Positions 1-9,312 of a stretch of DNA of 64,000 bases are shown one piece after another; position 1 is the first letter of the stretch; each line of letters begins with the position of its first letter. The translations under genes were made by a program, and so were the position numbers. Origin of the DNA: an uncultured Candidatus Saccharibacteria bacterium (GTDB taxonomy: Bacteria > Patescibacteriota > Doudnabacteria > UBA920). The notes beneath the pieces were generated by a model. That model ran no database searches. It saw nothing but the letters and a program-made list of their open reading frames with translations, and was not told the DNA's origin. Location of the stretch: the NCBI GenBank assembly GCA_964504715.1, contig CAZDEP010000002.1:21434-85433 (forward strand), in the 5' to 3' direction.

Positions 1-2759
1 GGTGCAAAAGGGTAAAGCAAAATTAAAAATTTCCGCAACAATACTGCATCCACCGCCTCATCTTTCACTTCATTATAAAATTCCATAAACGCGGAAATGC
101 AAGTGTTGAACCTGAAATTTTCAATGTCTTCGGTGATTTTTTTAACCAGCTTGTTAATTTCCCTCTCCGCCTTTTCGGAAGCCTTTTGGAATTTGTTATT
201 TGAAATTTGGAATTTCCCGACCCATTCCCAAACACGGTCCAAAAACCGCTTTACGCCCACAATGCCCTTGTCATTCCAGGCCACCATGGCTTCATGGGGC
301 CCTAAAAACAATTCATACATCCTTAAAGTATCCGCACCGTAACTTTTCACCACAACCTGAGGGTCCACCACGTTTCCCCGCGACTTTGACATTTTTTCCC
401 CGTCGGGCCCAAGGACAATACCGTGGGGTTTGCGCATTACATAGGGCTCCTTTTGAGCCACCAATCCCTGGTCAAACAAAAATTGGTTCCAAAAACGGCT
501 GTAAAGCAAATGCAAAGTCGTATGCTCCATCCCGCCAAAATACACGTCGACCGGAGTCCAATATTTTTGTTTCTTAATATCCGCGAACTCCTTGCTATTT
601 TTTGGATCCGTATACCGTAGCCAGTACCAGCTCGAGCCTGCCCACTGCGGCATGGTGTTAGTCTCGCGCCAGGCCAACTTTTTGCAGTTTGGGCATTTGG
701 TTTCCACCCATTTTTTTATGGCAGCCAAAGGCGACTCGCCCGTGCCCGTCGGTTCGTACTTTTTTACATTGGGCAACTTTACCGGCAAGTCTTCTTCGGG
801 CACCGGCACAACTCCGCAATCCTGGCAATGGATAAGCGGGATAGGCTCGCCCCAGTACCTTTGCCTGGAAAACACCCAGTCGCGCAAGCGATAATTTACC
901 ACCCGCTGGCCAAATCCTTGCGCCTCTAAATAATCCATAATTTTTTCCGTCGCATCGTGGATGTTAAGGCCGTTTAAAAATTCCGAATTTACCATAGTCC
1001 CTTCCTCTTCCTGGACTTGTTCGATTGATGCGATAGGAGCGGTATCGCTTGCGTCTTTTTGCACGACGCGCTTGATTTCCAATTTAAATTCCTGTGCAAA
1101 TTCAAAATCGCGCTTGTCGTGGCCCGGCACGCCCACTACGGCCCCGGTCCCGACATTGCCTAAGACATAATCGGCCACATACAATGGCATATGGTAATTG
1201 GTCAACTGGTTTATGCAGTAAAGGCCGGTAAATACTCCGGTTTTTTTGCGATTTTCCGCCGTCCTTAGTTCTTCCCCTTCGCTTAAGGCCTTTTGTTTGT
1301 ATGCCTCAATACGGCTCCAGTGCTTTTCGTCGATATTTAGAATATTTCGGTCCAGTAAAGAAGGATGCTCGGGGCCCACCACCACAAAAGTCGCGCCGAA
1401 ATTTGTGTCGGGGCGCGTGGTAAAACAGGTTATGACCGGAGAAACAAATTTTAAAATTTCTGGCTCTTCTTCAGCCCTAAAGTGCGGACTGTTCGCCCTA
1501 ACCTTTAAAAACGCCGCTTTTAAGTTCTGGGCAAATTTTTCGCCGTCGCTCGGCGCGACTACATTGTCGCTTTCATCATAAATGCACACAAAACTTTCCG
1601 CTTGCTTCCGAATTGTTTTAAAATCAAACCCTTTGGCCAAAGCGGCTTTTACGGTCGGGCGCGCCTTACCATCCAAAAATTGGTCGGTAAAAGGCGTGGC
1701 GGCCAAAAAAACTTTTTTTGCCTTCACGCCCCGCTCTAAAAGCCTCAAAGCCACAATGCCGCCAAATGAGTGGCCAAAAATAACGGTCTGCTCGTCAATT
1801 TTGCAATGTTTAAGCACATACTCTGTCTGCTCCGCGTCGTTGGGCTCGGCCGCGTTCGGCAAAACCGGCGCCTGGACTTTAAATCCCCTCTTTGCCAGCT
1901 CGTCTTTTAGCGCCGGGAAAAAATTATCTTCCGGCGAGCCGCCCTTGCCGTGCAAAAGCAAAAAATTCGGCGTGTGTTCGCCTTTGGCCGTAACCGAATA
2001 AGTAATGTTTATGCCGGTCTTTTTTCCAATCCAATTGGATTGCTGCAGCTTGACCGCTTCCGGCCAATCGGGCAAATTTTTTAATCCTTCCAGCAATTTT
2101 TCCGCGTATTTTGTAATTTTCAAATACCACTGCCTTAATTCCTTCTTTTCTACGGGCGTACCGCAGCGTTCGCATTTGCCGTCTATAACCTCTTCGTTGG
2201 CGAGCCCGGTCTTGTCTTTCGGGCACCAGTTTATAAGCCCCGTGGCTTCAAAGGCGAGGCCTTTTTTAAAAAACTGCAAAAACAACCACTGGGTCCACTT
2301 GTAATATTTCGGATCCGTGGTGTTTATTTCCCGGCTCCAATCAAAAGAAAGTCCCCAGGAATGCATTTGCTTTTTGGCATTAGCCACGTTTTTTTTAGTG
2401 GTAATGGACGGATGCACCCCCATTTTAATGGCGTAATTTTCCGCCGGCAGCCCAAACGCATCCCAACCCATGGGGAACAAAACCTCAAAGCCCTTCATAC
2501 GGAAATACCGCGCGTAAATATCGGCCGCCACGTAGGGCCTCAAGTGGCCCATATGCAGGCCAGCGCCCGAAGGATACGGAAATTCCACCAAAATGTATTT
2601 TTTTCCGCCAGAGGCGGATCCGCCTTTGGCGGAGGGCTTTTTAGAAAAATCTTTCTTGTCCGACGAAGCCTTGGCGAAGTCGGAGGCAAAAAATAACTTT
2701 TTTTGTTGCCAATATTTTTGCCATTTGGCTTCTACTTGTTGGGGGTTGTATTTAGGCAT
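1..2759 (-). CDS. leuS: Leucine--tRNA ligase (LeuRS), 3'-truncated by the left window edge, with a YdeN/RBBP9-like alpha/beta-hydrolase domain inserted before the CP1 editing domain
   Basis: Manual reverse-complement translation from ATG at 2759..2757 gives one uninterrupted frame to position 1: MPKYNPQQVEAKWQKYWQQKKLFF...PYPSGAGLHMGHLRPY (HMGH), QQSNWIGKKTG, CFTTRPDTNFGATFVVVGPEHP (editing TRPDT), GEKMSKSRGNVVDP (KMSKS). The ORF is absent from the supplied track only because it runs off the window. The plus-strand ORFs listed in 97..2778 are shadow ORFs. Confidence 0.85.
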   Translation of the reverse strand, partial: MPKYNPQQVEAKWQKYWQQKKLFFASDFAKASSDKKDFSKKPSAKGGSASGGKKYILVEFPYPSGAGLHMGHLRPYVAADIYARYFRMKGFEVLFPMGWDAFGLPAENYAIKMGVHPSITTKKNVANAKKQMHSWGLSFDWSREINTTDPKYYKWTQWLFLQFFKKGLAFEATGLINWCPKDKTGLANEEVIDGKCERCGTPVEKKELRQWYLKITKYAEKLLEGLKNLPDWPEAVKLQQSNWIGKKTGINITYSVTAKGEHTPNFLLLHGKGGSPEDNFFPALKDELAKRGFKVQAPVLPNAAEPNDAEQTEYVLKHCKIDEQTVIFGHSFGGIVALRLLERGVKAKKVFLAATPFTDQFLDGKARPTVKAALAKGFDFKTIRKQAESFVCIYDESDNVVAPSDGEKFAQNLKAAFLKVRANSPHFRAEEEPEILKFVSPVITCFTTRPDTNFGATFVVVGPEHPSLLDRNILNIDEKHWSRIEAYKQKALSEGEELRTAENRKKTGVFTGLYCINQLTNYHMPLYVADYVLGNVGTGAVVGVPGHDKRDFEFAQEFKLEIKRVVQKDASDTAPIASIEQVQEEEGTMVNSEFLNGLNIHDATEKIMDYLEAQGFGQRVVNYRLRDWVFSRQRYWGEPIPLIHCQDCGVVPVPEEDLPVKLPNVKKYEPTGTGESPLAAIKKWVETKCPNCKKLAWRETNTMPQWAGSSWYWLRYTDPKNSKEFADIKKQKYWTPVDVYFGGMEHTTLHLLYSRFWNQFLFDQGLVAQKEPYVMRKPHGIVLGPDGEKMSKSRGNVVDPQVVVKSYGADTLRMYELFLGPHEAMVAWNDKGIVGVKRFLDRVWEWVGKFQISNNKFQKASEKAEREINKLVKKITEDIENFRFNTCISAFMEFYNEVKDEAVDAVLLRKFLILLYPFA

Positions 2760-2797
2760 AAAAAAATTTAATTCTTGATGAAGGTCTTCTTGCAGTC

Positions 2798-3748
2798 CTA
2801 CTTTGATAAGGCAAATAATTTTTTAGCATTCTCTGTGGTAATTTTTTCAACTTCCTCCAGTGATAGATTTTTAATTTTTGCCACTCTTTCCGCCACGTGC
2901 TTTACGTAAAGCGGTTCGTTGCGTTTGCCTCGGTGCGGGACGGGAGTCAAATACGGCGAATCGGTTTCTAGAACAATCCTGTCAATGGGAACAGTTTTAA
3001 CCACTTCTTCCATATTTCCGCTTTTATCGAATGTAATTATACCATTTAAACCCACATACGCGCCGCGCTTTATAAATTCCTGAACGATCCCCGGACTACC
3101 GGTAAAGGAATGGATTTCAAACCGCAACCCCTCCCCTTCCCTCCCCTCATAAGGGGAGGGAGTAAGGGAGAGGTGGGCTTCTTGATCTAAAATTTGAAGT
3201 ATATCCTCGTACGCGTCCTGTGAACCCGCGCTCGGCCGGCAATGAATTACCAAAGCTTTATTTGCCTCTTTCGCCAATCTGATTTGCTGGACAAACGCAT
3301 CTTTTTGCAGCTTTTTAATTTCCTGATGACGGTCTTCTTGCCCCGCAAGAAGACCGTCATCTTGCGGCAGGCGGTAGTAGTCAAGCCCGCATTCGCCAAT
3401 GCCTACTACTTTTGGACTGTCCGCAAGTTTCCGATACGCCTCAAAGTCAAATTTTTCTTCACGTGATAAAAAACTTGTCTCTTCTTCATCCAAATGCTGC
3501 GAATAAGTATGGACCGGATGCAGCCCTATTACCGCATAAACGCCACCCCTTCCTCTCTCCTCCCCCCTAGAGGGGGAGGAAGGGTAGGGGGGATATTTTT
3601 CAGCAAGATCAACGGCCTGGCGTGATGTATCGATCTGTGTACCCACGTTTACAACCCACACGCCCGCTTCCAAAGCCCGGCCAATGGTTTGGTCGACGTC
3701 TTCGGCAAAAGCCTTAAAATTCACATGGGCGTGAGTGTCTATAAGCAT
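2798..3748 (-). CDS. TatD-family metal-dependent hydrolase/DNase
   Basis: MLIDTHAHVNF... N-terminus and TatD-like length; contains two in-frame palindromic repeat insertions (PYPSSPSRGEERGRGG; LTPSPYEGREGEG) and an in-frame terminator-like hairpin (DDGLLAGQEDRH). Confidence 0.8.
   Translation of the reverse strand: MLIDTHAHVNFKAFAEDVDQTIGRALEAGVWVVNVGTQIDTSRQAVDLAEKYPPYPSSPSRGEERGRGGVYAVIGLHPVHTYSQHLDEEETSFLSREEKFDFEAYRKLADSPKVVGIGECGLDYYRLPQDDGLLAGQEDRHQEIKKLQKDAFVQQIRLAKEANKALVIHCRPSAGSQDAYEDILQILDQEAHLSLTPSPYEGREGEGLRFEIHSFTGSPGIVQEFIKRGAYVGLNGIITFDKSGNMEEVVKTVPIDRIVLETDSPYLTPVPHRGKRNEPLYVKHVAERVAKIKNLSLEEVEKITTENAKKLFALSK
3125..3176. repeat. Family-1 GC-rich palindromic element (copy A), in-frame in the tatD-like CDS
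   Basis: ctccccttccctcccctcataaggggagggagtaagggagagg. Confidence 0.8.
3326..3360. repeat. Family-3 terminator-type hairpin repeat located inside the tatD-like CDS (in-frame)
   Basis: atgacggtcttcttg-ccccg-caagaagaccgtcat has the same 15-bp arms as the 24452..24488 terminator; it encodes DDGLLAGQEDRH on the minus strand. Confidence 0.75.
3543..3593. repeat. Family-1-like palindromic element (copy B), in-frame in the tatD-like CDS
   Basis: cccttcctctctcctcccccctagagggggaggaagggtagggggg. Confidence 0.7.
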
Positions 3749-3768
3749 GAAGTAAGAAGTAAGAAAAA

Positions 3769-5256
3769 TTAAACGATCCGTGGAAATAAACGAGGAATAT
3801 TATTTTCTTCAAGATTTTCTAAAGCTTCTAAAATCTTTTTTGAGGTAAGAGGCAAAAACGGCTGCAATGTTAAAGCAATTTTGTACAGTTCTAAAAGCAA
3901 ATGTTCTATATCTTTTTTTGCCCCAGCCTCGTCGGTTTTTATTTTTTTAAACGGCTCGGTTTTTTGGATGTATTCGTCGCACTCGCCAACTTTTCGCCAA
4001 ATCCCATCCATCACGGCTTTCAAATTATACCCATTCAAATCCACGCCGCCTTCATTCTTAATTCTTAATTCATAATTCATAATTCCGGCGTTCGCTGCCA
4101 TTTTTAAAACCCTGGAAGTCAAATTCCCTATCCCGTTGGCCAAGTTGGCGTTGTAGCTTTCTATAAACCTCTCCCAGGTGTAGTCGCCGTCTTCAAAGGT
4201 GGAAATTTCTCGTAAAAGATAATACCTTAAAGCGTCTATTGCCTGCTCTTTGCTGAGGCCTTTTTGCTCCAGTTGGTTTAAAATTTGGTAGGGGTCGGCC
4301 ACATTGCCCAAAGACTTGGACATTTTTTGCCCGCCCGAAGTTATAAAACCGTGGATAATAATTTGGCGAGAGTTGGGCAGGCCGGCCGACATAAGCATCG
4401 CCTGCCACATTGCCGACTGCTGGCGCAAATTATCCTTGCCGGCAATTTGAACGGCATTGAGCTGTTCTTTCGTGCCCCAAAATTCCTCAAATTTTGATTT
4501 TTGATTTTTGATTTTTGATTTATCATCAGGCCAGCCTAGGGTTGAAACATAATTTATAAGCGCGTCGAACCACACATACATAACCTGCTTTTCGTCCCCC
4601 GGCACCGGCACGCCCCAGGGCATTTTTTCCTTCAGGCGCGAAATGGAAAAATCCTGCAGTCCCCTTTTGACGAATTCCTTTATTTCATTGAATCTAAAAT
4701 CCGGCACGACAAAATCGGGATATTTTTTGTACAAATCCAGAAGCGGCTGTTGGTATTTGGAAAAACGGAAAAAATAATTTTCTTCCTCAATGGTTTCTAT
4801 TTTCAAATTGGGATGGATGGGGCACTGCCCGTTTTCGTCCAAATCACTCTCGGTTTTTTCCAACTCGCAGCCCACGCAATATTTAACATGGTAATTTTTT
4901 TTGTATATATCCCCATTGTCCGAGCAGAGTTTCCAAAACTCCTGGCATGCCTGTTTGTGCCCGGCGTCGGTGGTACGGATAAAATGGATGTCCGGCAAAA
5001 CCCCCAGCGCCGGCATTAATTTTTTAAACTTTTCCGCGTATTCATCTACATAGCTTTGCGTGTCTTTGCCTTCCTCGGCGGCTTTCCGGTAAATTTTCAG
5101 GCCGTGTTCGTCGGTGCCTGTATTAAAAAACACTTCCTGGCCCAAGAGTTTATGGAAGCGCGCAATGGCGTCAGCCTGCACGATTTCCAATGCAAAACCC
5201 AAATGCGGGTCCGAATTCACATAGGGCAAAGTGGTGGTAATATAAAATTTGTCCAT
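3769..5256 (-). CDS. metG: Methionine--tRNA ligase (short form)
   Basis: TTLPYVNSDPHLGFALE (HIGH-variant), GTDEHGLKI, KMSKSLGN; 495 aa. Carries an in-frame family-2 repeat (GIMNYELRIKNEG) and a 7-mer tandem repeat. Confidence 0.9.
   Translation of the reverse strand: MDKFYITTTLPYVNSDPHLGFALEIVQADAIARFHKLLGQEVFFNTGTDEHGLKIYRKAAEEGKDTQSYVDEYAEKFKKLMPALGVLPDIHFIRTTDAGHKQACQEFWKLCSDNGDIYKKNYHVKYCVGCELEKTESDLDENGQCPIHPNLKIETIEEENYFFRFSKYQQPLLDLYKKYPDFVVPDFRFNEIKEFVKRGLQDFSISRLKEKMPWGVPVPGDEKQVMYVWFDALINYVSTLGWPDDKSKIKNQKSKFEEFWGTKEQLNAVQIAGKDNLRQQSAMWQAMLMSAGLPNSRQIIIHGFITSGGQKMSKSLGNVADPYQILNQLEQKGLSKEQAIDALRYYLLREISTFEDGDYTWERFIESYNANLANGIGNLTSRVLKMAANAGIMNYELRIKNEGGVDLNGYNLKAVMDGIWRKVGECDEYIQKTEPFKKIKTDEAGAKKDIEHLLLELYKIALTLQPFLPLTSKKILEALENLEENNIPRLFPRIV
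4053..4086. repeat. Family-2 AT-rich repeat (aattatgaattaagaatt core), in-frame in metG
   Basis: cattcttaattcttaattcataattcataattcc; the reverse complement encodes GIMNYELRIKNEG. Confidence 0.7.
4489..4521. repeat. Heptanucleotide tandem repeat (gattttt x ~4.5) inside metG
   Basis: aattttgatttttgatttttgatttttgattt, in-frame as DKSKIKNQKSKF. Confidence 0.7.
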
Positions 5257-5414
5257 GGTGTTTTAAAGGCTCACAAATCCCTTTTCCAACCCTACTGCAA
5301 TGCTTTCCGTAGTAGTTGCCTGATTTATCAGGCTATCGTGATAGGATGTTTAAAGGCTCACACTTACAGTGTGAGCCTTTAAATTATAGCGATTTTTAAG
5401 GGTTTAAACAAATT

Positions 5415-6419
5415 TTACGCAGCAGACGATTTTTGGCCGTAAAATTCGTTAACAACCACCGTAATGGCGCTGGCCAAGGGCACGGCCACCAACAGGCCCA
5501 AAATGCCTGCCAATTTAAAACCGGTCAGCAAAGCCAAAAGGACGACCAAAGGCGAGGTGCCCACGGTTTTTTCCATAACCTTGGGCACCAAAACATAACC
5601 TTCGGTTTTTTGTACAACCAAATACAACGCCGCCACCGCAAAGCCCAATGCCGGCGACTGCAAAAGCCCAAAGAAAATGGCGGGTACGGCAGAAAGGAAC
5701 GGCCCAATGTAAGGCACAATTTCCAAAAGCCCGGCCAGCATGGCTAAAAACAACGCATACTTAACCCCCAAAAGCGAAAGGCCAATGAAGGTAAGGGCAA
5801 AAATTACGAAGCTTAAAATTATTTGGCCCAAAATCCATAAACCCATTTTATGCTGGATTTTTTCTATAAGCCCGGTGGTAAATTCCAAATGGGCTTCCGG
5901 AATAATTACGCCAATAAAATTTTTCATGCCTTTTTCTTCCGCCACCAAATAAAAGGAAATGACCAAAACCGAAACAAAAGAAAATAGGCCGTTAAAAACT
6001 CCAAATGTACTTTTGATTACTCCCTGGCCGGATTCTGAAGCGAATATGCCTTCAAAAATATTACCCAAACGCAAATCATTCAAAAAAGGAAAACCAAACC
6101 GCTCTTCAAACTGCTTTGCATAGCTGGGAAAATTTTGGCTGACAATTTTAAACTGCTCCAGGGCCGGAGGGATGAGCAAATAAATAACCAGCGCGGCAAA
6201 CCCGAATACGAACAAATACACAGCCAAAACGCTTACGGCCCTGGGGATACGCTGCTTTTGGTTTAAATATTCGGCCATAGGCTCCATGGCTGAAGCCAAA
6301 ATTACCGAGATTAAAAAAATTAGCAATATGTCGCGGATCGCCCACAAAAAACCCAAAGCCAAAAGGATAAAAACGGCTTTTAAAATAGTTTTGGTGGATG
6401 TATCGAGCGAGCTTAGCAT
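5415..6419 (-). CDS. AI-2E family transporter (PerM/UPF0118-like permease)
   Basis: Multi-TM protein, about 330 aa, with an AI-2E-like hydrophobic profile; a second paralog lies at 53848..54876. Confidence 0.7.
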   Translation of the reverse strand: MLSSLDTSTKTILKAVFILLALGFLWAIRDILLIFLISVILASAMEPMAEYLNQKQRIPRAVSVLAVYLFVFGFAALVIYLLIPPALEQFKIVSQNFPSYAKQFEERFGFPFLNDLRLGNIFEGIFASESGQGVIKSTFGVFNGLFSFVSVLVISFYLVAEEKGMKNFIGVIIPEAHLEFTTGLIEKIQHKMGLWILGQIILSFVIFALTFIGLSLLGVKYALFLAMLAGLLEIVPYIGPFLSAVPAIFFGLLQSPALGFAVAALYLVVQKTEGYVLVPKVMEKTVGTSPLVVLLALLTGFKLAGILGLLVAVPLASAITVVVNEFYGQKSSAA

Positions 6420-6444
6420 ATTATTTCACAAAAGCCGCCTAAAA

Positions 6445-6684
6445 TTAGGCGGCGTGCTGTACATCATCAGGCAAGGTTTCCCCTCTTTCCTCAAGAATTT
6501 TTTTGGCTTGAACCATCTTTTCATCCAATTCTTTTATACCTTCAAGACAATACGCCTTAATTTGTTCACGCAAGAAATCAGTCAGCCCTTCGTCTTTTAA
6601 ATCACGGATAAGGATATCTTTAATGGTCTGGTCTAAGGGCGACTGTTCAATTAAATTGATAACTTTCTGGATTTTCTCTTCCAT
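6445..6684 (-). CDS. hypothetical small acidic protein (79 aa)
   Basis: ORF only; an unlisted ORF of about 47 aa (MGERGPRPETAG...) lies just upstream at ~6692..6835 on the same strand. Confidence 0.35.
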   Translation of the reverse strand: MEEKIQKVINLIEQSPLDQTIKDILIRDLKDEGLTDFLREQIKAYCLEGIKELDEKMVQAKKILEERGETLPDDVQHAA

Positions 6685-6855
6685 GTTATTTTTCTACGCT
6701 GGTAAATAATTGTCGTAACTTTGCCAAGCCTTCACGCGCAGTTTCAATATATGCGCGCGGATCGGTTAAGTCTGCATATTCGGCACTCAAAACCGGATTA
6801 CCTGCTGTTTCGGGTCTCGGTCCTCTTTCGCCCATAAATTTCCTTTCTTTTTATT

Positions 6856-7773
6856 TCAAACTTTGCCGCGCAAAGTTTTTAAAATTTTAATATCTGCTTT
6901 GACTTTATCATGCTCCGTTTCTAAAATCAAGGCCATAGCGGCGTCAGCCACCACTTTGGACTTCTCTCTCCCTTTGGAAGAGGGATAAGAGGGTGAGGGT
7001 TTAATATTTTTACCAAAATACCCCATAATTGCTTCAAAGCCCTTTTTGCCGATTTTGCCTTCCCCAATATGGTCGTGCCGGTCCTTTCTTTCACCCAAAT
7101 CCGGCTTGGAGTCGTTCATATGGCTCATTTTGAGCCATTTTAAGCCTATCACCTTGTCGAACTTGGAAAAAGTGGACTCCACAGCAGCGCTGTTGCGCAA
7201 ATCGTACCCGGCGGAAAAGGCATGCTGGGTATCAAAGCAAATGCCCCCAAAAGTTTTAAACTTTTCCAAAGGCTCCATGAGGTCAGCCAGTTCCTCAAAA
7301 GTGTCCCCTATTACGGAACCTGCGCCTGCGGCTATTTCCAAAAGGAATTGGGTTTCGCCGCTGCCGTACTTTTTTAAAACCTCTGCCAAGCCTTTTTTAG
7401 TTTGGGCAAAGGCTTCCTTTTCGCCCAAGTCCTTAAAGCTGCCCAAATGCGTCATGACGTATTTGGCGCCCAGGCTGCTGGCCCGTTTAAGCTCTTCCGA
7501 TACAACGCTTATGGAGCCGTGGTAGACATTGGGCTTGGCAGAACCAAAATTTACAAAATAAGGACAATGGACCACAAAATCACTAAGCTGATGGGCCTTC
7601 ATCTCATCTTTAAATCTTTTTATCGTTAAGTCATTCAATTCGGGCGCTTTCCCGCCCATAGGCGGACGGGTAAAAATTTGGAAAGCTTCGCAGCCCAAAG
7701 CCGCGGCGTTTTTTGGCGCATTCCATACTCCCCCGGCGGCTGAAACATGGCAACCGATACTAAAATTGACCAT
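6856..7773 (-). CDS. nfo: Endonuclease IV (AP endonuclease family 2)
   Basis: MVNFSIGCHVSAAGG...HCPYFVNFGS...MTHLGS... core motifs; a C-terminal ~20-aa insert (PSPSYPSSKGREKSK) is encoded by a degenerate CT/GA-rich palindrome. Confidence 0.85.
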   Translation of the reverse strand: MVNFSIGCHVSAAGGVWNAPKNAAALGCEAFQIFTRPPMGGKAPELNDLTIKRFKDEMKAHQLSDFVVHCPYFVNFGSAKPNVYHGSISVVSEELKRASSLGAKYVMTHLGSFKDLGEKEAFAQTKKGLAEVLKKYGSGETQFLLEIAAGAGSVIGDTFEELADLMEPLEKFKTFGGICFDTQHAFSAGYDLRNSAAVESTFSKFDKVIGLKWLKMSHMNDSKPDLGERKDRHDHIGEGKIGKKGFEAIMGYFGKNIKPSPSYPSSKGREKSKVVADAAMALILETEHDKVKADIKILKTLRGKV

Positions 7774-7785
7774 GATTAAATAAAA

Positions 7786-7986
7786 TTAAGAAGTCATTTT
7801 AAAAATAATTTTAAGGCGAAATTGGGGAATTTTAGGCCAGTCGGTCAAAACAAATTTTGAATGTTTAACTGGAAGTTAAGCGGAGAAATTTTTTTGGCCG
7901 AATGGACAAAATTCACGAATTGTCCCCCTACGGGGGATCTGCCGTAGGCACGACAGCCAAAAAGGATTTTTAAAATGACTTCTTAA
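7786..7986. repeat. 201-bp element bounded by perfect 21-bp terminal inverted repeats (MITE-like or structured RNA candidate)
   Basis: ttaagaagtcattttaaaaat (7786..7806) is the exact reverse complement of atttttaaaatgacttcttaa (7966..7986). The interior holds further palindromic segments (ccccctacggggg / ctgccgtaggcac). It lies in the nfo/M16-peptidase intergenic region. Confidence 0.5.
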
Positions 7987-8043
7987 TAAGATTGACGATA
8001 ATTTATAATTCTTGCCACTCTCGATCATTCGCGGCAAGCTCGC

Positions 8044-9312
8044 TTATTCTTTAAATATGGCCTTAAAAGGCTTGTCACTTTTATACGGGCCGATTACAGC
8101 CAAAGTGGCATGCTGTTTTTTAAAAAGGCTTCTGGCCAAAACCTGCACGTCTTGGGCCGTAACCTTGTCTACCCTGTCCATGGCCTCTTTAGGCGTCCGG
8201 ATTTGTTTGTAAAAAGCCGCGCGCTCTAAAAACCAATCCAGGCGCACCTGGTTGTCTTCCAACGCGAGCACGGTTTTACCTTTCAAATATTCCTTGGCTT
8301 TTTTTAGTTCCTTTTCGTCCACCGTTTCATTTTTTATTTTCTCCAATTCTACTGCAATAACCTTTAAAGCTTCCTCAATTTTACCCACCTGCACGCCGGC
8401 CCCAATGTTAAATATGCCGGTGTCCTGGTAACAAGACCCGCTGGCGCGCACATAATATCCCAAGCCCCGCCTTTCCCTGACTTCCATAAAAAGCCGGGAA
8501 GACATGCCGCCGCCCAAAATAGCCGACAAGACAGACTGGGTGGAGAGTCTGGGGTCGTTATAGCTCAAGCCTTTAAAGCCCAAAGACAAATGCGCCTGTT
8601 CGGTTTCCTTAAAATGCAGGTTGATGCGGGAGCTTTTTTGCCCGTCTTTAACCTTCTCGCAAACATGGAATTTTTTCCTCGGGAATTTTGACCAATATTT
8701 TTGCACCAGCGCATCAAAAGTTTTTTGGCTGTATTTGCCGCTAATGCCTAAAATCATGTTGGGCACCTGGTAATGGCGGTTAATGTAATCCAAAAACATT
8801 TGCCGTGTAAACTTGGTAACCGTGTCTTTGGTTCCGGCAATGTCACGCCCCAAAGGCGTGCCCGGCCACATTTTCTGTTCGAGCACGTTGTCTATTTCAT
8901 ACATGGGCGTGTCTTTGTACATGTTTATTTCCTCTACTATTACGCCTTTTTCCCTTTCCAACTCCGTTTCGTCAAAAAGCGGGTTTTGGATCATATCGGT
9001 CAAAATGCCAAAAATCAGCTCCAAATGCTGGTGGGCTGCTTTAATGTAATACTGAGTATGTTCCTTGCCGGTATTCGCATTCATTTCCCCGCCAATCGAG
9101 TCGATTAGGGAAGAAATGGCCAAGGCAGACGGATATTTTTTTGTGCCCTTAAATAAAAAATGTTCCAAAAAATGGCTTATGCCATTTTCTTTCTGTGATT
9201 CTGATCTTGAACCGGTCTTAATAAAAAAATCCACCACCACGCTTTCGGAGTCGGTTGAGGGGACTTCAATTATAGTGAGGCCGTTACCTAAAACTTTTTT
9301 TGTAAATTTCAT
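8044..9312 (-). CDS. M16-family zinc metallopeptidase (insulinase-like)
   Basis: HFLEHFLFKGT inverted zinc motif (HxxEH) near the N-terminus; 422 aa. Confidence 0.8.
   Translation of the reverse strand: MKFTKKVLGNGLTIIEVPSTDSESVVVDFFIKTGSRSESQKENGISHFLEHFLFKGTKKYPSALAISSLIDSIGGEMNANTGKEHTQYYIKAAHQHLELIFGILTDMIQNPLFDETELEREKGVIVEEINMYKDTPMYEIDNVLEQKMWPGTPLGRDIAGTKDTVTKFTRQMFLDYINRHYQVPNMILGISGKYSQKTFDALVQKYWSKFPRKKFHVCEKVKDGQKSSRINLHFKETEQAHLSLGFKGLSYNDPRLSTQSVLSAILGGGMSSRLFMEVRERRGLGYYVRASGSCYQDTGIFNIGAGVQVGKIEEALKVIAVELEKIKNETVDEKELKKAKEYLKGKTVLALEDNQVRLDWFLERAAFYKQIRTPKEAMDRVDKVTAQDVQVLARSLFKKQHATLAVIGPYKSDKPFKAIFKE

Follow-up and report, generated by a model that had tools for sequence, protein, structure and literature searches.

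A YdeN/RBBP9-family serine hydrolase inserted in a Patescibacteria leucyl-tRNA synthetase, and its possible link to the host enzyme

Why does a leucyl-tRNA synthetase (LeuRS) carry a whole additional domain at the entrance to its CP1 editing domain, and is this domain a partner of the synthetase or a passenger in it? The question is raised by the leuS gene at the left end of a 64-kb stretch of contig CAZDEP010000002.1 (assembly GCA_964504715.1), which we call the window (the whole 64,000 nucleotides analysed). The original prediction, made from the DNA letters, had read here a continuous minus-strand LeuRS with about 190 extra residues of the YdeN/RBBP9 serine hydrolase type between the NWIG connector and the strand leading into the TTRPDT motif. 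We located all the motifs that it had named (HMGH, NWIGKKTG, TTRPDT, and KMSKS) in an open frame, and the extra segment counts 186 residues (amino acids (aa) 257-442, window 1434-1991, minus strand).

A serine hydrolase in the first CP1 hairpin

The insert lies within the first beta-hairpin of CP1. The NWIGKKTG connector and the first stalk strand, INITYSV, exit the catalytic body into CP1 (aa 242-256, window 1992..2036, minus strand; NWIGKKTG itself aa 242-249, window 2013-2036). In close relatives that are insert-free there, the same hairpin loop has only about 11 residues, as in locus L005 ('GINITYKLEKNPQVSIEVFTTRPDT'), whose 'GINITYK' aligns with INITYSV; this alignment of orthologues sets the insertion point in the first CP1 hairpin loop. 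The junctions fall between ITYSV and TAKGE and between VSPV and ITCF, and in translation the cassette is made of a linker (TAKGEHTP), a core running from NFLLLHG to EPEILKF (aa 265-438, window 1446-1967), and a second linker (VSPV). The span first proposed, 1446-2012, covers the core but also includes the stalk strand INITYSV and misses the last 4 linker residues.

In the full-length AlphaFold model of the LeuRS (predicted local distance difference test (pLDDT) 86.7, predicted template modeling score (pTM) 0.77), the strands at 246-258 and 442-447 form a two-strand stalk under the hydrolase domain, which has a pLDDT of 89-97 there, and the last helix of the hydrolase is only about 8 residues away from TTRPDT. 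No stop codon or frameshift was found by frame translation in window 1446-2012, either of which had been named as evidence for a separate gene or a pseudogene. There is no compositional anomaly at the insert, GC content being unremarkable, and the only repeats flanking it are short chance ones. An artefact, a frameshift, or a separate gene was ruled out by the continuous frame and by the recurrence of the architecture: more than 100 independent clusters, drawn from NCBI, JGI, ENA, and Logan assemblies, share it, which excludes an assembly artefact. An intein or mobile element was ruled out as well, with no splice residues, no Hint or homing-endonuclease domain (Pfam), and no flanking repeats. 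No further copy of the hydrolase domain was found in the 64-kb window.

Profile, sequence, and fold comparisons place the insert in one family. Taken alone, it scores 24.5 bits on Pfam PF06821 (Ser_hydrolase) against a cut-off of 22, and 34.6 bits on Abhydrolase_1 against a cut-off of 25.8 (E 2e-8); scored inside the whole LeuRS, PF06821 reaches 20.3 bits, slightly under the cut-off, and relatives of the insert reach up to 94 bits on the same profile. With phmmer against the PDB, the insert matched Bacillus subtilis YdeN (1uxo, E 8e-7) and human RBBP9 (E 7e-4). The model of the insert, built with free-standing homologues, has a pLDDT of 94.1 and a pTM of 0.89, and its top 7 PDB matches in Foldseek are all RBBP9 or YdeN (E 1.6e-14 to 3.9e-13, TM 0.80-0.88, root-mean-square deviation 2.4-2.5 A), while the next-best PDB fold, at E 5e-8, is six orders of magnitude weaker. 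Only alpha/beta hydrolase families were matched in Pfam, NCBIfam, and the PDB, with no homology to the CP1, YbaK/ProX, AlaX, or DTD folds, and Pfam gave no match to peptidases S66 or S51.

The catalytic residues proposed for the insert (Ser in GHSFGG, Asp in DESDN, and His in SPHF) were found by alignment to the family columns and by their conservation. The nucleophile, Ser331 (window 1767..1769, minus strand), sits in the elbow GHSFGG (aa 329-334, window 1758-1775) and aligns with 'AHSLG' of YdeN and 'GHSSG' of RBBP9 (Ser75); it is Ser in 149/152 domains and in 96/96 of those embedded in LeuRS. The acid is Asp398 (window 1566..1568, minus strand), the second Asp of DESDN (aa 395-399, window 1563-1577), in a column that holds D in 124 and E in 17 of 152 domains (D 86 and E 10 among the 96 embedded). 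It matches the Asp of the family consensus 'SDNDP', and RBBP9 Asp138 falls within one residue of it in the pairwise alignment. The base, His426 (window 1482..1484, minus strand) in SPHF (aa 424-427, window 1479-1490), aligns with 'GGHF' of YdeN and 'CGHF' of RBBP9 and is His in 140/141 non-gap positions, 94/94 in embedded copies. After strand beta1, 'LLLHGKGG' contains the HG motif His270-Gly271 (window 1947..1952, minus strand), identified by column conservation (H in 138 and G in 131 of 152 sequences, 13 being gapped; H in 85/96 embedded copies), which by analogy with alpha/beta hydrolases would form the oxyanion hole.

Thus, by profile, fold, and triad, the insert is a YdeN/RBBP9-family serine hydrolase. 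Like human RBBP9 (2qs9, 7oex, 9fcr) and B. subtilis YdeN (1uxo), it has a minimal alpha/beta hydrolase fold without a lid, about 180 aa long, in which HG, GxSxG, Asp, and His follow one another in the same order and the triad residues align; unlike them, it is nested in another enzyme rather than free-standing, is only 20-22% identical to them, and belongs to a clade with conserved motifs of its own (LPN..P...EQ and F.D..RP). Because the triad is conserved across copies, we infer that the hydrolase is predicted to be catalytically competent, with Ser331-Asp398-His426 and the HG motif under purifying selection. The opposite view, that the fold survives purely for structure or interaction (a pseudoenzyme), is highly improbable: nothing specific speaks for it beyond an insert that diverges faster than the core (44% vs 79% identity), and Ser, acid, and His are essentially invariant in 96 embedded and about 150 wider copies, with HG and GxSxG kept.

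The host is otherwise a canonical bacterial LeuRS. The gene (window 3..2759, minus strand) is open from the ATG at 2759 to the left window end and gives 919 aa in the window, with a complete N-terminus and the last 99 aa, at the C-terminus, falling outside; its full-length twin in public databases, P0231 (1018 aa, on a 102-kb contig), is 100% identical to the window protein. Despite the C-terminal truncation, the window protein scores 874.3 bits on NCBIfam TIGR00396 (leuS_bact; cut-off 548.4). The class-I signatures HMGH (aa 69-72, window 2544-2555) and KMSKS (aa 789-793, window 381-395) and two zinc knuckles are present. The CP1 editing domain proper (aa 443-640, window 840..1433, minus strand) starts at the stalk strand ITCF and matches Pfam tRNA-synt_1_2 over aa 443-612 (E 8e-50). 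Both of its editing motifs are intact, the Thr-rich TTRPDT (aa 447-452, window 1404-1421) and the GTG...HDxRD motif, here GTG...HDKRD (GTGAVVGVPGHDKRD, aa 537-551, window 1107-1151).

In Foldseek, the full model matched Thermus thermophilus LeuRS 2bte (TMt 0.83) and Escherichia coli LeuRS 4aq7 (TMt 0.85), with TMt 0.83-0.86 overall. All class-Ia signatures, CP1, and the anticodon-binding and C-terminal domains are shared with the canonical enzymes (E. coli 4aq7/4arc, T. thermophilus 2bte), from which the window LeuRS differs by the roughly 186 residues in the first CP1 hairpin and by a disordered N-terminal stretch. The latter (aa 29-50, window ~2610-2675, minus strand) is rich in Lys, Ser, and Gly ('KASSDKKDFSKKPSAKGGSASGG'), is predicted to be disordered (pLDDT <50), and is missing from several relatives.

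Distribution, insertion sites, and exchange of the cassette

An exhaustive search of 1.84 billion representative proteins with the insert yielded 1178 relatives, 222 of them at E<=1e-10, and recovered LeuRS hosts that a word-index homology search, run with the insert alone or with a profile, had missed. LeuRS makes up about 52 of the best 150 family representatives, with every other host present once or twice, in a list that is skewed to relatives of the query because this came from a LeuRS.

Within LeuRS, the hydrolase occurs at three sites. Site A is the first CP1 hairpin, occupied in the window. Site B lies just past the HCxxC zinc knuckle that follows CP1 (HCQDC in the window, aa 644-648, window 816..830, minus strand, by the junction sequences); the loop just beyond the knuckle is empty in the window and occupied in P0020, L010/P0313, P0273, P0103, P0079, and others. 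Site C, the variable first loop of the anticodon-binding domain (aa 846-866, window 162..224, minus strand), is empty in the window, and L003, L005/P0252, P0002, and P0101 have a hydrolase there. Of the 120 LeuRS clusters nearest to the window protein, 90 use Site A, 3 Site B, and 1 Site C, 2 are unplaced, and 24 are without insert, so the same insertion that the original prediction had proposed to look for in relatives is common among them. In a scan based on 4 close sequences, the genome loci with the domain were all LeuRS (9/9) and all from Patescibacteria, also called candidate phyla radiation (CPR) bacteria; the nearest named relatives are Candidatus Doudnabacteria. In metagenome contigs, 17/19 loci with the domain were Site-A LeuRS. 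In one protein, P0328, Site A holds two tandem hydrolase domains. Another locus, L005:3973-7050 (an uncultured, Saccharibacteria-labelled metagenome-assembled genome, CAZAED010000010.1), has an in-frame TAA inside its Site-C hydrolase, in place of the AAA (Lys) codon of L003; either a sequencing error has occurred or LeuRS is genuinely cut short inside the insert, and the database protein P0252 (827 aa) stops there.

The history of the cassette does not follow that of its host gene. Identity of the 96 embedded copies to the window averages 44% over the hydrolase domain, 79% over the N-terminal catalytic core, and 56% over CP1, and the triad is kept all the same (Ser 96/96, Asp/Glu 96/96, His 94/94 non-gap). 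Insert identity is bimodal (about 35-44% and 50-61%) and correlates neither with core identity (r = 0.05) nor with CP1 identity (r = -0.11). The closest relative, P0233 (L023:703-3690), is 96% identical in the core and 89% in CP1, but its cassette at the same site is only 41% identical. The drop falls at the insert edges: the protein flanks of the two cassettes are 87-97% identical, and in the codon alignment third-position identity is 0.6-0.83 in the flanks and 0.23-0.47, essentially saturated, in the cassette. Saturation confined within the insert edges means that the cassettes coalesce much earlier than the gene around them, and vertical co-inheritance of insert and host is ruled out by the absence of correlation (r = 0.05) and by the divergent cassette of P0233. 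Moreover, all three sites are represented among hosts whose catalytic core is 74-92% identical to that of the window LeuRS, and across 87 relatives cassette type, CP1 type, and core identity disagree with one another, a sign of modular recombination within leuS. On these comparisons of aligned sequences, the cassette appears to be exchanged between lineages, with CP1 types shuffled independently. The hydrolase is, in sum, a widespread, modular, and recombining feature of CPR LeuRS and not a singular oddity.

Nearly all hosts, the window LeuRS included, have kept the CP1 motifs TTRPDT and HDxRD, and a role of the hydrolase as substitute for a degenerate CP1 was rejected as a general rule on this basis. 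Two Site-B hosts, P0020 and L010 (=P0313), have the variant Thr-rich motif TTWPHT, and the LeuRS genes beside free-standing hydrolases in L002:2831-4558 and L020:1578-3998 have the variant YDSVPQT, HDxRD being kept in all of them. Hydrolase configuration may be linked to CP1 type.

We inspected 8 free-standing copies that group with the LeuRS-borne ones in the domain tree (a neighbour-joining (NJ) tree), and 5/8 adjoin leuS or share an operon with it. P0001, P0013, and P0031 lie directly upstream of leuS with gaps of 2 to 36 nt, and P0034 lies directly downstream. P0024 belongs to an operon of the order hydrolase, second hydrolase, YbaK-like tRNA_edit protein, Ham1, and LeuRS, the last being of archaeal type (TIGR00395, 750 bits); this type of locus is seen in L018 (GCA_020049755.1, JAHZTO010004402.1) at 4001-8549, with two Ser_hydrolase genes, the YbaK-like tRNA_edit gene, Ham1 (ITPase), and the archaeal-type LeuRS gene. 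P0152 and P0015 have no aminoacyl-tRNA synthetase (aaRS) gene nearby, the contig of P0036 is too short to judge, and two distant free-standing copies taken as controls have no aaRS gene nearby. In L020, too, Ham1 is close to leuS and the hydrolase, and P0094 is a fusion of Ham1 and the hydrolase. A further free-standing member, at L041:4477-5052 (AMFJ01000853.1), reads TGA in frame at four codons; two of these fall on conserved Gly residues, one preceding HS in the nucleophile elbow and the other preceding HF in the catalytic His motif, which is consistent with the UGA=Gly code of Gracilibacteria/Absconditabacteria.

In the window itself, leuS is downstream of, and co-directional with, the genes of MetRS (5256-3769, minus strand) and TatD (3748-2798, minus strand), and no second leuS is present among the open reading frames listed for the 64 kb. 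The order MetRS, TatD, (hydrolase), LeuRS is common to the window (2759-5256, minus strand) and to L002, where the hydrolase is a separate gene that ends 2 nt ahead of leuS. The window TatD (316 aa) differs from that of L002 (280 aa) by two short inserted stretches of low complexity, 'PPYPSSPSRGEERGRGG' and 'LSLTPSPYEGREGEG'. Sua5/YciO follows leuS in L001, L020, and L023.

The family is not confined to LeuRS. In the same part of the NJ tree, the other hosts are ValRS, AlaRS, a Fmt-like protein, TsaD, EngA, and SecA, mostly tRNA-handling proteins (the first four). Members of a more canonical type occur inside UvrB or in end-to-end fusions with Adk, Ham1, NUDIX, HD, glyoxalase, Peptidase_S51, or aminoglycoside nucleotidyltransferase domains, S51 being solely a fusion partner of the distant members P0098 and P0142, outside the LeuRS-type clade. 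In eight proteins (P0030, P0037, P0054, P0056, P0066, P0083, P0092, and P0143), where the domain sits inside SecA, EngA/Der, UvrB, TsaD, AlaRS, ValRS, or a Fmt-like formyltransferase, it is compact and always starts at about [NK][YF][IV]xLHG and ends at about EPxxL. A fixed position at the editing-domain junction of the other aaRS hosts was rejected, as two ValRS hosts use different sites flanking DTWFSS.

LeuRS, in turn, accepts other domains. A second hotspot inside CP1 of CPR LeuRS holds NUDIX, HAD_2, or Methyltransf_23 domains, often alongside a Site-A hydrolase (P0268 aa 566-681, P0321 aa 562-678, P0339 aa 409-516, P0302 aa 554-709, P0333 aa 394-555, and also L008, L009, and L011); the equivalent loop of the window LeuRS is at about aa 566-586 (window ~1002-1064). 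LeuRS seems to serve as a platform on which small hydrolase and transferase domains are inserted.

Possible functions of the hydrolase

The original prediction had left the choice between an auxiliary deacylase and an unrelated moonlighting insertion, and these two remain the main contenders. From comparative genomics, we infer that the hydrolase is a dedicated functional partner of LeuRS and not a random passenger: the balance shifts toward a functional link because of the three insertion sites, the leuS adjacency of free copies, and the operon shared with a YbaK-like protein. The reading that we favour, with confidence evenly poised between belief and doubt, is that of a LeuRS-coupled alpha-aminoacyl ester/amide hydrolase, which, with CP1 intact, would add a further step of quality control or house-cleaning.

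The CP1 entry hairpin has been opened to accept a complete, independently folding YdeN/RBBP9 hydrolase on a two-strand stalk, and on the favoured reading this hydrolase would cleave an alpha-aminoacyl carbonyl, ester or amide, bearing a free alpha-amine. This chemistry is proposed because RBBP9 performs it and because the compounds that LeuRS makes or deals with, namely aminoacyl-tRNA esters, aminoacyl-adenylates, and their mimics, belong to the same class. What is known of the biochemistry of the family comes from RBBP9 alone, a serine aminopeptidase with a strict requirement for a free alpha-amine (PMC8866121), and a citing paper credits it with activating valacyclovir, a valyl ester prodrug and thus an aminoacyl ester of a nucleoside analogue (Shenoy 2020 as cited in PMC7730578). 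The leading candidate substrate would be the 3' aminoacyl ester of mischarged tRNA(Leu), since several other hosts handle tRNA, a YbaK-like protein is an operon partner, and TTRPDT is only 8 residues away. Small aminoacyl esters, and by-products or inhibitors that resemble aminoacyl-nucleotides, would come second. Since the domain is found at three sites and also as a separate, operon-encoded protein, it would probably need proximity to LeuRS or co-expression with it, not a fixed geometry.

Several points weigh against this proposal. The intact CP1 motifs leave no obvious editing gap for the hydrolase to fill, and Site C, in the anticodon-binding domain, is far in sequence from the acceptor-end sites. 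We know of no alpha/beta hydrolase that deacylates tRNA, and a full-text literature search did not find tRNA deacylation by such an enzyme. Glu108 of RBBP9, which anchors the alpha-amine, pairs with Ala of the window insert in a pairwise alignment whose loop aligns unreliably (of the other RBBP9 residues implicated in holding the amine, Ser76 pairs there with Phe332 and Tyr99 with a Phe); P0001 and P0002 have Glu at the Glu108 position, in the same unreliable loop. Members of the same clade are inserted in SecA and EngA, and the wider family occurs in UvrB and fused to Adk, NUDIX, and HD. The NUDIX, HAD, and methyltransferase inserts mean that CPR LeuRS may simply tolerate insertions. Finally, the NJ tree of the domain carries no support values.

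These points keep alive the strongest rival, an autonomous passenger, which we consider rather doubtful but far from negligible; it survives because the family is found in SecA, EngA, UvrB, and TsaD and because the CP1 motifs are intact. A domain with adjacent termini is easily inserted in a surface loop, and it would do a general esterase or peptidase job, LeuRS being merely a permissive, essential, and constitutively expressed host in a streamlined genome. Insertions in ValRS and AlaRS, the end-to-end fusions described above (Adk, Ham1, NUDIX, HD, glyoxalase, and Peptidase_S51), the NUDIX, HAD, or methyltransferase inserts at another CP1 loop, the use of three different sites within LeuRS, and the decoupling of the cassette history from the host gene all fit a passenger. 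What such a passenger would not be expected to show is that members encoded as separate genes still lie by leuS in 5/8 cases, one of them archaeal-type, against 0/2 for the distant controls. Nor would one expect LeuRS to make up about 52 of the best 150 representatives and other hosts 1-2 each, with the same bias of that list toward a LeuRS-derived query.

Amino-acid supply is an unlikely explanation. Here, the hydrolase would be an RBBP9-like N-terminal aminopeptidase for hydrophobic residues, freeing leucine from scavenged peptides for the attached LeuRS. CPR bacteria are amino-acid auxotrophs, for which release of leucine would be useful; RBBP9 is a proven aminopeptidase, the other aaRS hosts serve hydrophobic or small residues (ValRS and AlaRS), and the wider family is fused with Peptidase_S51 dipeptidases. 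However, the Fmt-like, TsaD, EngA, and SecA hosts and the operon with the YbaK-like protein and Ham1 are left unexplained, and free leucine would diffuse off, so tethering to LeuRS would give little benefit.

Target-borne immunity is, in our judgement, quite unlikely. The hydrolase would cut aminoacyl-nucleotide Trojan-horse inhibitors that mimic leucyl-adenylate (TM84-like or microcin-C-like), as do MccF, MccG, and MccH. LeuRS is a natural target of TM84, and the serine peptidases MccF (S66) and MccG (S51) detoxify aminoacyl-nucleotides (PMC8323819; PMC9239234). Cleavage of the aminoacyl ester of a nucleoside analogue by RBBP9, as reported in the citing paper, would fit, as would the Ser_hydrolase-Peptidase_S51 fusions P0098 and P0142, the nucleotide-directed NUDIX and HAD inserts in the same LeuRS proteins, and the swapping of divergent cassettes between near-identical hosts, which resembles diversifying exchange. 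The case is nevertheless drawn wholly by analogy: no such toxin is known from CPR habitats, the S51 fusions lie outside the LeuRS-type clade, and the known warheads are P-N or sulfamoyl-linked, not esters.

Relation to known systems and significance

If the favoured coupling to LeuRS is right, the insert would be, like YbaK/ProX, AlaX, and DTD, an accessory aminoacyl-ester hydrolase beside a synthetase, and a YbaK-like protein is co-operonic with one clade member and a LeuRS. It differs from them in its unrelated fold and in its predicted mechanism, that of a Ser-His-Asp covalent catalyst. With MccF (S66), MccG (S51), and MccH (HIT), it would have in common the general idea of an enzyme, hydrolase or modifier, that inactivates aminoacyl-adenylate mimics directed at an aaRS; this is an analogy only, the fold family of the insert being different. 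An aaRS bearing an extra enzymatic domain is known, as in NCBIfam NF040702 (IleRS with a GNAT domain). The combination found here had been thought not to be described, and we found no prior description of the LeuRS-hydrolase architecture in the full-text literature on LeuRS, aaRS, CPR, hydrolase insertion, YdeN, or trans-editing, although the automated JGI annotation of one relative already names both halves ('leucyl-tRNA synthetase/predicted alpha/beta hydrolase family esterase'). An RBBP9/YdeN-type hydrolase in LeuRS thus appears to be undescribed, and it carries a strong, unexplained evolutionary signature.

More broadly, and only as a tentative possibility, an RBBP9-like hydrolase may have been recruited in CPR/Patescibacteria, and in at least one organism with an archaeal-type LeuRS, as a fold-unrelated partner of LeuRS that hydrolyses aminoacyl esters or aminoacyl-nucleotides, acting as a "third sieve" on mischarged tRNA(Leu) or as target-borne protection against toxins that mimic leucyl-adenylate, being kept by selection and shuffled as a cassette among sites and lineages. 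It might then represent a new class of hydrolytic activity associated with synthetases. If this is true, the hydrolase and the NUDIX and HAD inserts in CP1 would together make LeuRS a platform for enzymes that clean up by-products or toxins.

Few proofreading enzymes have been studied as well as LeuRS, which is also a validated target of drugs (benzoxaboroles, TM84). A further hydrolytic center, unrelated in mechanism, in or beside the LeuRS of much of a bacterial radiation would mean an unassayed component of quality control or of synthetase defense. For the poorly understood YdeN/RBBP9 family, the association provides a functional lead, and it offers a clean natural case of one domain inserted at several positions of one host protein and exchanged as a cassette.

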